DNA of 64,000 bases from assembly GCF_017348835.2 (NCBI RefSeq), contig NZ_CP071375.1. One strand, 5' to 3'. Each line of letters begins with the position of its first letter. Positions within the stretch are counted from its first letter, which is position 1. Made by a program: the position numbers and the translations under genes. This DNA is from Escherichia coli. Lineage in GTDB: Bacteria > Pseudomonadota > Gammaproteobacteria > Enterobacterales > Enterobacteriaceae. Below the pieces are notes generated by a model, which searched no databases, was not told where the DNA came from, and saw only the letters and a program-made list of their open reading frames with translations. Positions 19,777-58,832 of the stretch are shown here, in pieces.

Positions 19777-19809
<33 letters not shown>

Positions 19810-19861
19810 TGACCTCTGTACTTATAACAGTTCTTATAACAACAAGTAAGGTTATTGCGCT

Positions 19862-20264: not shown

Positions 20265-20310
20265 TTTGTTGTGCCGGATGCTCATGCCGCATCCGGCAAC
20301 ATCCCGAGTA
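20265..20310. repeat. Single REP element between fadM and queC
   Basis: GCCGGATGCTCATGCCGCATCCGGCAAC palindromic REP-like motif. Confidence 0.65.
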
Positions 20311-31411: not shown

Positions 31412-31441
31412 GCGACATTAACCCTCTCCGCCCGGAGAGGG

Positions 31442-31831
31442 TTAGTAGTTCCAGCGATAACGCTGCAAGTCGATTTGCCCGCTTCCCGATACCATCACAC
31501 CTTCTGCCAGTAATGCCTGTCGCTGACGCTGTAAATCCGGTCCGGTTAGCGAAATTGTGCCGTGGCGATTAACCACCCGGTGCCAGGGTAAGGTGCTGCC
31601 TTCAGGGAGACGCTTTAACACACCGCCCACCTGGCGCGCGGCGCGGGGCGATCCCGCCAGTTTCGCCACATCACCGTAAGTGGTTACATAGCCTTCGGGA
31701 ATAGCGGCGACGATTTGCCAGACGCGTTGGGGAAATGAATCTTCTTTTTCCATCTTTTCTTCCTGAGGTAATTTTTCAGCATAATCTGGAAAAACGCCCG
31801 AGTGAAGTCGCATTGCGCAAGAAACCAGCAT
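31442..31831 (-). CDS. atl: Alkyltransferase-like DNA-damage recognition protein Atl (YbaZ), 129 aa
   Basis: ORF-track 31442..31852 minus; C-terminal sequence recognised; start chosen at second in-frame start to give 129 aa; alternatives at 31852 (TTG) and 31813 (ATG). Confidence 0.8.
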   Translation of the reverse strand: MLVSCAMRLHSGVFPDYAEKLPQEEKMEKEDSFPQRVWQIVAAIPEGYVTTYGDVAKLAGSPRAARQVGGVLKRLPEGSTLPWHRVVNRHGTISLTGPDLQRQRQALLAEGVMVSGSGQIDLQRYRWNY

Positions 31832-41168: not shown

Positions 41169-41192
41169 TACATACATTCACAAATGTATGTA
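41169..41192. promoter_or_regulatory. AcrR operator: 24-bp palindrome TACATACATT-CACA-AATGTATGTA in the acrR-acrA divergent promoter region
   Basis: 10-bp perfect inverted arms read in sequence 29 bp upstream of acrR ATG; matches the known AcrR operator. Confidence 0.85.
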
Positions 41193-47551: not shown

Positions 47552-48846
47552 ATGAGTTATCAGGTCTTAGCCCGAAAATGGCGCCCACAAACCTTTGCTG
47601 ACGTCGTCGGCCAGGAACATGTGCTGACCGCACTGGCGAACGGCTTGTCGTTAGGGCGTATTCATCATGCTTATCTTTTTTCCGGTACCCGTGGCGTCGG
47701 AAAAACCTCTATCGCCCGACTGCTGGCGAAGGGGCTAAACTGCGAAACCGGCATTACCGCGACGCCGTGCGGCGTGTGCGATAACTGTCGTGAAATCGAG
47801 CAGGGGCGCTTTGTCGATCTGATTGAAATCGACGCCGCCTCGCGCACCAAAGTTGAAGATACCCGCGACCTGCTGGATAACGTCCAGTACGCTCCGGCGC
47901 GTGGTCGTTTCAAAGTTTATCTCATCGACGAAGTGCATATGCTGTCGCGCCACAGCTTTAACGCACTGTTAAAAACTCTTGAAGAGCCGCCGGAGCACGT
48001 TAAGTTTCTGCTGGCGACGACCGATCCACAGAAATTGCCGGTGACGATTTTGTCGCGCTGTTTGCAATTTCATCTCAAGGCGCTGGATGTCGAGCAAATT
48101 CGCCATCAACTTGAGCACATCCTCAATGAAGAACATATCGCTCACGAGCCGCGGGCGCTGCAATTGCTGGCGCGCGCCGCTGAAGGCAGCCTGCGAGATG
48201 CCTTAAGTCTGACCGACCAGGCGATTGCCAGCGGTGACGGCCAGGTTTCAACCCAGGCGGTCAGTGCGATGCTGGGTACGCTTGACGACGATCAGGCGCT
48301 GTCGCTGGTTGAAGCGATGGTCGAGGCCAACGGCGAGCGCGTAATGGCACTGATTAATGAAACCGCTGCCCGTGGTATCGAGTGGGAAGCGTTGCTGGTG
48401 GAAATGCTCGGCTTGTTGCATCGTATTGCGATGGTACAACTTTCGCCTGCTGCACTTGGCAACGACATGGCCGCCATCGAGCTGCGGATGCGTGAACTGG
48501 CGCGCACCATACCGCCGACGGATATTCAGCTTTACTATCAGACGCTGTTGATTGGTCGCAAAGAATTACCGTATGCGCCGGACCGCCGTATGGGCGTTGA
48601 GATGACGCTGCTGCGCGCGCTGGCGTTCCATCCGCGTATGCCGCTGCCTGAGCCAGAAGTGCCACGCCAGTCCTTTGCACCCGTCGCGCCAACGGCAGTA
48701 ATGACGCCACCCCAGGTGCCGCCGCAACCGCAATCAGCGCCGCAGCAGGCACCGACTGTACCGCTCCCGGAAACCACCAGCCAGGTGCTGGCGGCGCGCC
48801 AGCAGTTGCAGCGCGTGCAGGGAGCAACCAAAGCAAAAAAGAGTGA
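47552..48846 (+). CDS. dnaX: DNA polymerase III gamma subunit, 431 aa, produced by programmed -1 frameshift at 48835-48841 then Glu and TGA stop at 48844-48846
   Basis: Slippery heptamer A AAA AAG in frame at codons 428-430; -1 frame reads GAG TGA immediately after; established mechanism. Confidence 0.85.
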
Positions 48847-49483
48847 ACCGGCAGCCGCTACCCGCGCGCGGCCGGTGAATAACGCTGCGCTGGAAAGACT
48901 GGCTTCGGTCACCGATCGCGTTCAGGCGCGTCCGGTGCCATCGGCGCTGGAAAAAGCGCCAGCCAAAAAAGAAGCGTATCGCTGGAAGGCGACCACTCCG
49001 GTGATGCAGCAAAAAGAAGTGGTCGCCACACCGAAGGCGCTGAAAAAAGCGCTGGAACATGAAAAAACGCCGGAACTGGCGGCGAAGCTGGCGGCAGAAG
49101 CCATTGAGCGCGACGCGTGGGCGGCTCAGGTGAGTCAACTTTCGCTACCAAAACTGGTCGAACAGGTGGCGTTAAATGCCTGGAAAGAGGAGAGTGATAA
49201 CGCAGTATGTTTGCATTTGCGCTCCTCTCAGCGGCATTTGAACAACCGCGGTGCACAGCAAAAACTGGCTGAAGCGTTGAGCATGTTAAAAGGTTCAACG
49301 GTTGAACTGACTATCGTTGAAGATGATAATCCCGCGGTGCGTACGCCGCTGGAGTGGCGTCAGGCGATATACGAAGAAAAACTTGCGCAGGCGCGCGAGT
49401 CCATTATTGCGGATAATAATATTCAGACCCTGCGTCGGTTTTTCGATGCGGAGCTGGATGAAGAAAGTATCCGCCCCATTTGA
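47552..49483 (+). CDS. dnaX: DNA polymerase III tau subunit DnaX, 643 aa (full-length product)
   Basis: ORF-track full length; Walker A GTRGVGKTS; zinc-binding CGVCDNC. Confidence 0.97.
   Translation: MSYQVLARKWRPQTFADVVGQEHVLTALANGLSLGRIHHAYLFSGTRGVGKTSIARLLAKGLNCETGITATPCGVCDNCREIEQGRFVDLIEIDAASRTKVEDTRDLLDNVQYAPARGRFKVYLIDEVHMLSRHSFNALLKTLEEPPEHVKFLLATTDPQKLPVTILSRCLQFHLKALDVEQIRHQLEHILNEEHIAHEPRALQLLARAAEGSLRDALSLTDQAIASGDGQVSTQAVSAMLGTLDDDQALSLVEAMVEANGERVMALINETAARGIEWEALLVEMLGLLHRIAMVQLSPAALGNDMAAIELRMRELARTIPPTDIQLYYQTLLIGRKELPYAPDRRMGVEMTLLRALAFHPRMPLPEPEVPRQSFAPVAPTAVMTPPQVPPQPQSAPQQAPTVPLPETTSQVLAARQQLQRVQGATKAKKSEPAAATRARPVNNAALERLASVTDRVQARPVPSALEKAPAKKEAYRWKATTPVMQQKEVVATPKALKKALEHEKTPELAAKLAAEAIERDAWAAQVSQLSLPKLVEQVALNAWKEESDNAVCLHLRSSQRHLNNRGAQQKLAEALSMLKGSTVELTIVEDDNPAVRTPLEWRQAIYEEKLAQARESIIADNNIQTLRRFFDAELDEESIRPI
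48835..48875 (+). other. dnaX: dnaX programmed ribosomal frameshift cassette: slippery site A_AAA_AAG (48835-48841) plus downstream stem-loop CCGGCAGCCGCTACCCGCGCGCGGCCGG (48848-48875)
   Basis: Heptamer and GC-rich hairpin 6 nt downstream read directly; frame verified from the dnaX start. Confidence 0.9.
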
Positions 49484-49520
49484 TCGTAAGCACAGCTTAC
49501 GTTCGTCATCCTTAACGTGA

Positions 49521-49864
<344 letters not shown>

Positions 49865-49865
<1 letters not shown>

Positions 49866-50470
49866 TGCAAACCAGCCCGCTGTTAACACAGCTTATGGAA
49901 GCACTGCGCTGTCTGCCGGGCGTTGGCCCGAAGTCGGCGCAGCGTATGGCGTTCACGCTGCTTCAGCGCGATCGTAGCGGCGGGATGCGTCTGGCGCAGG
50001 CGCTCACCCGGGCGATGTCGGAAATCGGCCACTGCGCCGATTGCCGCACTTTCACCGAACAGGAAGTCTGTAACATCTGTTCGAATCCGCGTCGTCAGGA
50101 AAACGGTCAAATCTGTGTGGTGGAGAGTCCGGCGGACATTTACGCCATTGAGCAGACGGGGCAGTTTTCAGGTCGTTATTTTGTGTTGATGGGGCATCTG
50201 TCACCGCTGGACGGCATCGGTCCGGATGATATCGGGCTTGATCGTCTGGAACAGCGTCTGGCAGAGGAAAAAATCACTGAAGTGATCCTCGCCACCAATC
50301 CCACGGTTGAAGGTGAAGCTACCGCTAACTACATTGCCGAGCTTTGCGCGCAATATGACGTGGAAGCCAGCCGAATCGCTCATGGCGTACCGGTTGGCGG
50401 CGAACTGGAAATGGTCGATGGCACCACGTTGTCGCATTCCCTTGCCGGGCGTCATAAGATTCGTTTTTAA
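49865..50470 (+). CDS. recR: Recombination protein RecR, 201 aa
   Basis: ORF-track full length; C4 zinc finger ([16 protein letters not shown]); Toprim region; start overlaps ybaB stop (TGATG). Confidence 0.96.
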
Positions 50471-50499
50471 GCAAACGAGAGCAGGATCACCTGCTCTCG

Positions 50500-50528
50500 C
50501 TTGAAATTATTCTCCCTTGTCCCCATCT
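50500..50528 (+). promoter_or_regulatory. Sigma-32 (heat-shock) promoter of htpG: -35 CTTGAAA, 15-bp spacer, -10 CCCCATCT
   Basis: Near-consensus sigma-32 elements read about 50-80 nt upstream of htpG ATG. Confidence 0.7.
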
Positions 50529-50579
50529 CTCCCTCATCCTGTTTTTAACCTTAAAATGGCATTATTGAGGTAGACCTAC

Positions 50580-52454
50580 ATGAAAGGACAAGAAACTCGT
50601 GGTTTTCAGTCAGAAGTGAAACAGCTTCTGCACCTGATGATCCATTCTCTCTATTCCAATAAAGAAATCTTCCTGCGTGAGCTTATCTCTAACGCCTCCG
50701 ATGCGGCGGACAAGCTGCGTTTCCGTGCGCTCTCTAACCCGGACCTGTACGAAGGTGATGGCGAACTGCGCGTTCGTGTCTCTTTCGATAAAGACAAGCG
50801 CACGCTGACCATCTCCGATAACGGCGTGGGGATGACCCGCGACGAAGTGATTGACCATCTGGGGACTATCGCTAAATCCGGTACCAAATCATTCCTCAAA
50901 TCCCTGGGTTCTGACCAGGCGAAAGACAGCCAGCTGATCGGTCAGTTTGGTGTTGGTTTCTACTCTGCGTTTATCGTGGCCGACAAAGTGACCGTGCGTA
51001 CTCGCGCGGCAGGCGAAAAACCACAAAATGGCGTCTTCTGGGAATCGGCTGGCGAAGGTGAATACACCGTTGCCGACATCACCAAAGAAGATCGTGGTAC
51101 TGAAATCACCCTGCATCTGCGTGAAGGCGAAGACGAGTTCCTCGATGACTGGCGCGTGCGTTCCATCATCAGCAAATACTCCGACCATATCGCGCTGCCG
51201 GTAGAGATCGAAAAACGCGAAGAGAAAGATGGCGAAACCGTTATCTCCTGGGAAAAAATCAACAAAGCGCAGGCGCTGTGGACTCGTAACAAGTCGGAAA
51301 TCACCGATGAAGAGTATAAAGAGTTCTACAAACACATCGCCCACGACTTTAACGATCCGCTGACCTGGAGCCACAACCGCGTTGAAGGTAAGCAGGAGTA
51401 CACCAGCCTGCTGTACATCCCGTCCCAGGCTCCGTGGGATATGTGGAACCGTGATCATAAACACGGCCTGAAACTGTATGTTCAGCGTGTGTTCATCATG
51501 GACGACGCAGAACAGTTCATGCCGAACTATCTGCGCTTCGTGCGTGGTCTGATTGACTCCAGCGATCTGCCGCTGAACGTTTCCCGTGAAATCCTCCAGG
51601 ACAGCACGGTAACGCGTAACCTGCGCAATGCGCTGACCAAGCGTGTGCTGCAAATGCTGGAAAAACTGGCGAAAGACGACGCGGAAAAATACCAGACCTT
51701 CTGGCAACAGTTTGGCCTGGTACTGAAAGAAGGTCCGGCGGAAGATTTCGCTAACCAGGAAGCGATCGCCAAACTGCTGCGTTTTGCTTCTACTCATACC
51801 GATTCTTCTGCGCAGACCGTGTCCCTGGAAGACTACGTTTCCCGCATGAAAGAAGGGCAGGAGAAAATCTACTACATCACTGCAGACAGCTATGCGGCAG
51901 CGAAGAGCAGCCCGCACCTGGAACTGCTGCGTAAGAAAGGCATCGAAGTTCTGCTGCTTTCCGACCGCATCGATGAGTGGATGATGAACTATCTGACTGA
52001 GTTCGACGGTAAACCGTTCCAGTCGGTGTCTAAAGTTGACGAGTCGCTGGAAAAACTGGCTGACGAAGTTGATGAGAGCGCGAAAGAAGCGGAGAAAGCA
52101 CTGACTCCGTTCATCGACCGTGTGAAAGCCCTGCTCGGCGAGCGCGTGAAAGATGTCCGTCTGACTCACCGTCTGACCGATACGCCAGCGATCGTTTCGA
52201 CCGACGCGGACGAAATGAGCACTCAGATGGCGAAACTGTTCGCTGCGGCGGGCCAGAAAGTGCCAGAAGTGAAATACATCTTCGAACTGAACCCGGATCA
52301 CGTACTGGTGAAACGTGCGGCAGATACTGAAGATGAAGCGAAGTTCAGCGAGTGGGTAGAACTGCTGCTGGATCAGGCGCTGCTGGCAGAACGCGGCACG
52401 CTGGAAGATCCGAACCTGTTTATTCGTCGTATGAACCAGCTGCTGGTTTCCTGA
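50580..52454 (+). CDS. htpG: Chaperone HtpG (Hsp90), 624 aa
   Basis: ORF-track full length; GHKL ATPase N-terminal motifs ([17 protein letters not shown]). Confidence 0.97.
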
Positions 52455-52457
52455 TGT

Positions 52458-52495
52458 AATGCCGGATGACCTTCGTGTCATCCGGCATTTTTCTT
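52458..52495 (+). terminator. htpG intrinsic terminator (ATGCCGGATGAC...GTCATCCGGCAT followed by T-run)
   Basis: Long inverted repeat immediately after stop, followed by TTTTTCTTTT. Confidence 0.75.
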
Positions 52496-58595: not shown

Positions 58596-58800
58596 TCCGT
58601 CTCCTTTTCCTGGTGGTTATTGTCCATTTTTGGCCGGGAAAACCAAAATTACAGGTAATAGTTTATGACAATTTCATTGATGATGTTCATGAATAATTAT
58701 TGAATTTTGCAGAAAAATGGAATTAGCTGCAAAAAAAGCACGGATCGGAAAACAGAAGGCGGTTTAACAGAGGAAAGGCTTATGGCGACTGTAAAACGAT

Positions 58801-58825
58801 GCAGCCAAAGTTTGCCTTTGGCTGC
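58801..58825 (-). terminator. fsr terminator-like hairpin (perfect 10-bp stem GCAGCCAAAG-TTTGC-CTTTGGCTGC)
   Basis: Perfect inverted repeat immediately downstream of fsr stop; weak U-tract on minus strand. Confidence 0.5.
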
Positions 58826-58832
58826 AATGAAA

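Follow-up and report, generated by a model that had tools for sequence, protein, structure and literature searches.

A conserved hairpin that very probably defines the 3′ end of recR mRNA directly adjoins the sigma-32 promoter of htpG in Escherichia coli

Intrinsic terminators of Escherichia coli consist of a GC-rich stem just past the stop codon, with an A-rich 5′ flank, and of a U-tract of 7–9 nt; the 3′ ends of their transcripts lie a few nucleotides past the stem. A distinct class of stem-loops, described by Dar & Sorek (2018), lacks the U-tract and protects mRNA 3′ ends, with rut sites located downstream (PMC6061677). This class comprises Rho-dependent or processed transcripts, and its authors envisage mixed or transitional cases (PMC6061677). 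Lastly, in compact terminator-promoter junctions, an upstream terminator hairpin is positioned directly against a downstream promoter and keeps a stress promoter free of constitutive read-through. Here, we describe a hairpin located between recR and htpG, which very probably acts as the protective hairpin that defines the 3′ end of recR mRNA, that is, of the (apt-)dnaX-ybaB-recR transcripts.

The window, meaning the whole stretch of 64,000 nucleotides that was analysed, comes from Escherichia coli and carries the gene order apt-dnaX-ybaB-recR-htpG-adk. According to the open reading frames and the annotation, dnaX occupies positions 47552-49483 and the start codon of htpG is the ATG at 50580. 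The recR coding sequence (49865-50470, + strand), identified from the ORF list and from the RefSeq annotation of identical E. coli DNA, ends with a TAA stop at 50468-50470 and is the last gene of the dnaX-ybaB-recR transcripts. The 401 bases surrounding the hairpin are 100% identical to strain PE164 and were found in 5424 of 5426 complete E. coli genomes, where they are annotated as recR and htpG. MG1655 coordinates (NC_000913.3) correspond to window coordinates plus 444540. Upstream in the same transcripts, published 3′ ends are located at 49476-49477 (MG1655 494016-494017, +), just before the dnaX stop and after a hairpin (CUGCGUCGGUUCUUCGAUGCGGAG), and positions 494018 and 494051 are given as RNase E-dependent 5′ ends. 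The RNA may be processed here, between dnaX and ybaB.

The recR hairpin occupies positions 50476-50499 (+ strand), as seen from the sequence and the fold. It is a perfect inverted repeat of 10 pairs, 7 of which are G-C, with a 5′ arm CGAGAGCAGG (50476-50485), a 4-nt loop ATCA (AUCA in the RNA; 50486-50489) and a 3′ arm CCTGCTCTCG (50490-50499, also given as CCUGCUCUCG); both arms are also supported by the covariation described below. The stem begins 5 nt past the TAA, and the junction reads ...TTTTTAAGCAAA CGAGAGCAGG ATCA CCTGCTCTCG CTTGAAATTATTCTCCCTTGTCCCCATCT... In the RNA, the calculated free energy is −17.8 kcal/mol (z = −5.8), and none of 200 shuffled sequences was equally stable. Hence, the perfect 10-bp hairpin that the original prediction had placed after the recR stop is borne out by sequence and fold energy. 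Its limits had been set at 50477-50498, one base too narrow on each side, and its loop, given as ATCAC, had one C too many.

The stem-loop has the dimensions of a canonical intrinsic terminator (a stem of at least 5 bp and a loop of 3–8 nt) and it is preceded by an A-rich stretch (AAGCAAAC). Instead of a U-tract of about 7–9 nt directly 3′ of the stem, it carries the tail CTTGAAATTATTCTCC (CTTGAAATTATT), with only 3 T in the first 8 positions (CUUGAAAU in the RNA). In agreement with this absence, already noted in the original prediction, a consensus terminator scan made no call at the hairpin on either strand. On the − strand, the miss probably arises because the tool extends the stem through G-T pairs and thereby loses the TTTGCTT tail. 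A terminator read on the − strand was nevertheless dropped: there is no convergent gene, and the asymmetry of G.U and A.C pairs described below also argues against it. In the fold, the stem is prolonged by 3 bp across an A.C mismatch, through pairing of CAA (50472-50474, +) with UUG (50501-50503). These three pairs are nearly invariant in 20 genera (two never vary, and the third has changed once, from A-U to G-U), so that covariation neither supports nor refutes them. A longer outer helix (UUUUAAGC/GCUUGAAA), observed in E. coli folds, uses the last recR codons; it was rejected, as inspection of the orthologue sequences showed that it is not conserved.

Perfect hairpins of at least 10 bp with loops of 3–8 nt are expected 0.34 times per simulated 64-kb window, as compared to eight distinct ones in the real window. 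Two of these eight are followed by terminator T-runs and two contain REP-like GCCGGATG motifs. In the htpG terminator (52458-52489, +), the stem measures 13 bp, contains a REP-like GCCGGATG/CATCCGGC core and precedes TTTTCTTTT. Six further perfect hairpins, each with 10 bp or more, are located at 2225-2248, 19793-19817, 20272-20298, 31419-31444, 41169-41192 and 58800-58826; that at 2225-2248 (AAAAAGGTGC...GCACCTTTTT) looks like a bidirectional terminator, and that at 20272-20298 is REP-like. An Rfam scan of positions 49000-52000 (evalue mode) gave no family match at the recR hairpin. A sub-threshold match to STnc460, a Salmonella sRNA, was obtained at 49334-49423 (+), in the 3′ part of dnaX (25.3 bits for a gathering threshold of 70, E = 0.09), and is probably due to chance.

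The base directly 3′ of the recR stem is the first base of CTTGAAA (50500-50506, +), which is both the −35 element of the htpG sigma-32 promoter and the tail of the hairpin in recR RNA. The transcription start site (TSS) of htpG maps to 50535-50536 (+; MG1655 495075 by SMRT-Cappable-seq and 495076 in Table S2 of PMC10667835). CTTGAA (50500-50505) is thus positioned at −35 to −30, exactly as in the sigma-32 consensus (PMC10216364), and it is invariant in 31 genera. The −10 element CCCCATCT (50521-50528, +; about −14 to −7) is of the CCCCAT type, and its CCCCA is nearly invariant in the same number of genera. Therefore, the contact that had been predicted between the 3′ arm and the −35 element holds to the base. 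With respect to the htpG TSS, the hairpin spans −59 to −36, the DNA of its 3′ arm corresponding to about −45 to −36. Being upstream of the TSS, it is absent from htpG mRNA made at this promoter. A T/A polymorphism distinguishes window position 50534 from MG1655 495074, one base before the htpG TSS.

This arrangement accounts for the tail of the hairpin, which is poor in U because it is the −35 element of the next promoter. In other compact terminator-promoter junctions the hairpin also lies directly against the promoter; unlike these, the recR-htpG overlap is complete, with the stem reaching to −36 and the −35 element itself forming the tail, and the abutment is conserved in two families. Further downstream, the promoter spacer and the htpG 5′ leader form a C-rich, G-poor tract (50507-50566, +) with 19 C and 4 G, in the top 0.4% (99.6th percentile) of + strand 60-nt windows. 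The orthologous tracts contain on average 18.7 C and 7.4 G. From its composition, the tract would be rut-like if transcribed as read-through RNA.

Published datasets locate the steady-state 3′ ends of recR at 50501-50506 (MG1655 495041-495046, +; Adams 2021, TRS 2023, and Tables S3/S6 of PMC10667835), that is, +2 to +7 from the stem and within the 10 nt or so expected of an in vivo 3′ end at a canonical intrinsic terminator. The curated Term-seq 3′ end of Adams 2021, of class 'primary' for recR, is at 495042(+), and its printed sequence ends with ...CCTGCTCTCGCTT (PMC7815308, Supplementary file 1). This position is 50502 in the window, 3 nt beyond the stem. In several RNAtag-seq and Term-seq datasets, TRS 2023 reports for recR a 'Primary' terminus that extends over 495038/9-495050/53 and peaks at 495044/5 (PMC10687069). 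In the same study, R-bar (1 minus local read-through) is 0.93-0.97 for the recR terminus and 0.95-0.99 for the canonical htpG terminator (PMC10687069), the measure being a local one, such that the nearby htpG TSS could affect the recR value. Hence, 3′ ends near 50498, whose lack was to count against the original prediction, are present at 50502-50505, 3–6 nt after the stem (Adams 2021, TRS 2023).

An RNase-targetome study gives evidence on how these ends are formed. A '3′ rne end' is listed at 495046, with a signal of 0.44 in the wild type and 0.10 in the mutant, and is paired in Table S6 with a 'PNPase trimming stop position' at 495041 (PMC10667835). This pair means cleavage between GAAA and UUAUU, followed by 3′-to-5′ trimming to 2 nt from the stem, bearing in mind that 'RNase E-dependent' 3′ ends from an rne mutant can be indirect. 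Together with the covariation in the + strand RNA, these ends bear out the role in RNA processing or stability that had been proposed for the hairpin. At the canonical htpG terminator, the stem ends at 497029 and the published 3′ ends are at 497031-497037. The offset is equal to that of the recR site, so that position alone cannot separate termination from trimming. PNPase stops were also found at the htpG terminator, at 497031 and 497037 (PMC10667835).

SMRT-Cappable-seq operon variants, among the matches listed, are b0469-b0472, b0470-b0472, b0471-b0472, b0473 and b0473-b0474. Each of these variants has recR as its last gene or begins at the htpG TSS, and a recR-htpG isoform (b0472-b0473) is not among the matches listed; the htpG-adk read-through isoform b0473-b0474 is. 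Little or no stable recR-htpG RNA is therefore recorded in these matches, in line with the partial insulation of htpG from dnaX-ybaB-recR read-through that the original prediction had suggested. On the other hand, ybaN through adk are grouped as a single 'complex operon' (PMC10667835), which may point to some transcription units with read-through. The tables of Adams 2021 name neither recR nor htpG among their Rho termination regions (PMC7815308), although any signal of this kind would be masked by the htpG promoter, located 36 nt downstream. The TERMITe supplements have no recR entry.

The 86-nt hairpin region is present in one copy per genome in 5424 of 5426 complete E. coli genomes. About 40% of these genomes have at least one difference from the window over the 86 nt, none of them in the hairpin among the sequences inspected. 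MG1655 carries the identical hairpin, and so does the most divergent E. coli match, whose five substitutions are all downstream of the −35 element. To extend the comparison, 80 recR loci from Enterobacterales and Vibrionales were used, one per species. htpG lies within 400 nt after recR in 57 of the 80 loci, or 58 when the window is counted. In 35 of these 58 Enterobacterales loci, representing 33 distinct sequences, the end of a hairpin with a free energy of −11 to −22.6 kcal/mol falls −4 to +3 nt from TTGAA; judged by record name, these loci belong to genera of Enterobacteriaceae and Erwiniaceae. In L011 (Escherichia sp. ESNIH1) and L027 (Enterobacter sp. ENT03), the stretch from the recR stop to the hairpin carries indels, and the hairpin still adjoins CTTGAA. 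L033 (Klebsiella sp. BIGb0407) has no hairpin beside the −35 element, and a new hairpin is found near the recR stop, followed by a T-rich tail.

The remaining 23 loci have longer spacers; of the hairpins found from the recR stop to the promoter, the strongest is located 22–157 nt upstream of the −35 element. They include Serratia, Yersinia, Rahnella, Pectobacterium, Dickeya, Brenneria, Hafnia, Edwardsiella, Morganella, Providencia, Photorhabdus, Xenorhabdus and Arsenophonus. In six of the 23, among them Morganella (GGACAGACGGC...GCCGTCTGTCC-TCTTTTCT), Arsenophonus (...TTATTTTTT) and Acerihabitans, the hairpin precedes a true T-run, with 5 or more T among the 8 nt that come after it, as in intrinsic terminators. 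The simplest reading of these sequences is that recR had an ancestral terminator, whose U-tract position would have been taken by the −35 element upon compaction of the spacer in the common ancestor of Enterobacteriaceae and Erwiniaceae.

Covariation was evaluated in 20 Enterobacteriaceae genera that share one stem register, aligned blind to structure, over 9 core pairs; the innermost of the 10 pairs was left out, an alignment gap making its register ambiguous. The 31 aligned genera could not be fitted by one consensus structure, as the register is shifted by 1–2 columns in Erwiniaceae, Cedecea and Enterobacter sp. Ag1, and the formal pair count was therefore limited to the 20 genera. Compensatory double changes, in which both sides are altered, were found at 8 of the 9 core pairs. 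Paired cells amount to 97.8%, versus 31–42% when the 3′ partner is slid by 1–3 columns, and none of 500 shuffles reached any of the observed measures, with the caveat that the cells are linked by phylogeny rather than independent. The stem positions are the least conserved columns of the alignment, yet they remain paired. On the + strand, 19 cells are G.U and 1 is A.C, an excess which shows that pairing is selected in the recR-sense RNA rather than in an antisense RNA or as a symmetry of the double-stranded DNA. As judged from these alignments, the hairpin structure has evidently been kept by compensatory evolution over the whole depth of Enterobacteriaceae and Erwiniaceae.

In the mechanism that we propose, the intergenic region would have been compacted, the htpG −35 hexamer and a T/C-rich spacer (CUUGAAAUUAUUCU) occupying the usual place of the U-tract. 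With this place taken, the hairpin would be a non-canonical, probably weak, intrinsic terminator and/or a block to exonucleases. RNAs that reach beyond it would probably be cut by RNase E in the AU-rich single strand or, alternatively, would be terminated further on, possibly via Rho loading on the C-rich tract. PNPase would then trim 3′-to-5′ until halted by the hairpin. The net outcome would be a stable recR 3′ end and a heat-shock htpG promoter insulated from constitutive upstream transcription.

Within this framework, the evidence bears on two contributions. Some intrinsic termination is favored by the strong stem, the A-rich 5′ flank, the AU-rich hybrid region (CUUGAAAUUAUU), the T-runs in relatives and the lack of a reported Rho region; without a canonical U-tract, efficient intrinsic termination is not assured, and we give nearly even chances to the view that the hairpin works mainly in this way. 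That the ends arise mainly by processing or by Rho, with subsequent protection, is favored by the missing U-tract, the dependence on RNase E and PNPase and the C-rich, G-poor tract conserved in orthologues, and we consider this somewhat short of an even chance. The likeness to the Dar & Sorek class, to which recR can be related from its structure and published ends, is substantial: a stable stem-loop without a U-rich tail stands directly upstream of a precise steady-state 3′ end, C exceeds G downstream, and trimming by PNPase reaches the stem, with an RNase E-dependent end just past it. In contrast to that class, what comes after recR is a translated gene with a promoter of its own, not a long untranslated tail, and the SMRT-Cappable-seq variants, among the matches listed, hold no recR read-through isoform. 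From these comparisons, the recR site looks like a mixed or transitional case between a terminator and a protective stem-loop.

A stricter version would make the stem-loop purely protective. No termination would then occur at the hairpin; transcription would enter the htpG leader or gene and end there, either at the htpG terminator or through Rho loaded on the C-rich tract, and RNase E with PNPase or RNase II would make the recR 3′ end. RNase E prefers AU-rich single strands beside a stem, and the cleavage context at recR, between AA and UUA, resembles this preference. The end at 495046 and the trimming stop at 495041 fit such a route, as does the absence of a U-tract, and the C-rich, G-poor stretch of 60 nt directly downstream of the recR hairpin resembles the rut sites that follow protective hairpins (PMC6061677). 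However, RNA entering htpG from recR does not appear among the full-length primary-transcript variants in the matches listed, and Adams 2021 reports no Rho termination region for either gene. Moreover, the stops at the canonical htpG terminator mean that PNPase dependence does not discriminate, an A-rich stretch 5′ of the stem is more typical of intrinsic terminators (PMC6061677), and six relatives have true T-runs after the hairpin downstream of recR. We regard a purely protective role as quite possible, with less than an even chance. The abutment of the hairpin on the −35 element may itself be selected as a dual-use sequence, TTGAAA and the spacer serving as promoter, as release or RNase E site and as Rho-loading tract. 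Upstream transcription or terminating polymerases would then tune the access of sigma-32 holoenzyme to htpG, or occupancy of the heat-shock promoter would alter recR 3′-end formation. This idea is based on the abutment kept in 35 Enterobacteriaceae and Erwiniaceae loci, even where indels moved the stop codon, and we think it improbable.

Two further explanations place the function outside the recR RNA or deny it. The repeat could be a DNA element of the htpG promoter, either the palindromic operator of a regulator or a cruciform, centred at about −47.5 and modulating sigma-32-dependent initiation. The interval from −59 to −36 is a typical place for contacts with an activator or alpha-CTD, and in the L011 and L027 indels the hairpin stays by the −35 element rather than by the stop. 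Nevertheless, the stem sequences differ almost wholly between genera and pairing is kept by double changes, whereas a protein site would conserve the sequence; consistently, neither half-site conservation nor the both-strand symmetry of a palindromic operator was found. The 19 G.U against 1 A.C indicate selection on the RNA of one strand, the hairpin is separated from an otherwise conserved promoter in 23 Enterobacterales loci, and RNA 3′ ends map exactly at the hairpin base. A DNA-level element is thus very unlikely. Short palindromes also arise by chance, and the window has REP-like hairpins elsewhere, at 20272-20298 and 52458-52489. Yet the 0.34 expected over 64 kb become far fewer at the exact recR-htpG junction, and the REP hypothesis, which calls for many copies with a shared consensus, was rejected, the element having one place per E. 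coli genome and no Rfam family. A functionless palindrome or repeat is already refuted by the strong covariation across 20 genera and by the coincidence with mapped 3′ ends. The reading that we retain is that of a hairpin which defines and protects the 3′ end of recR mRNA.

The element is of an ordinary, well-known kind, and the recR 3′ end and its fold are already contained in published supplementary tables for E. coli K-12. A practical consequence is that cloning the 'htpG promoter' with upstream sequence, for instance as a burden-sensing part, brings the recR 3′ hairpin along. For the organism, the finding mainly confirms a textbook genome organisation, in which an mRNA-end hairpin separates a constitutive replication/repair operon from a heat-shock gene. 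Mildly notable is the deep conservation of a complete terminator-promoter overlap, with the −35 element as the hairpin tail. In Enterobacteriaceae and Erwiniaceae, the U-tract is replaced by the −35 element of the next gene and the hairpin is kept by compensatory changes, which makes the recR-htpG junction a clean natural example of the continuum from terminator to protective stem-loop proposed by Dar & Sorek.
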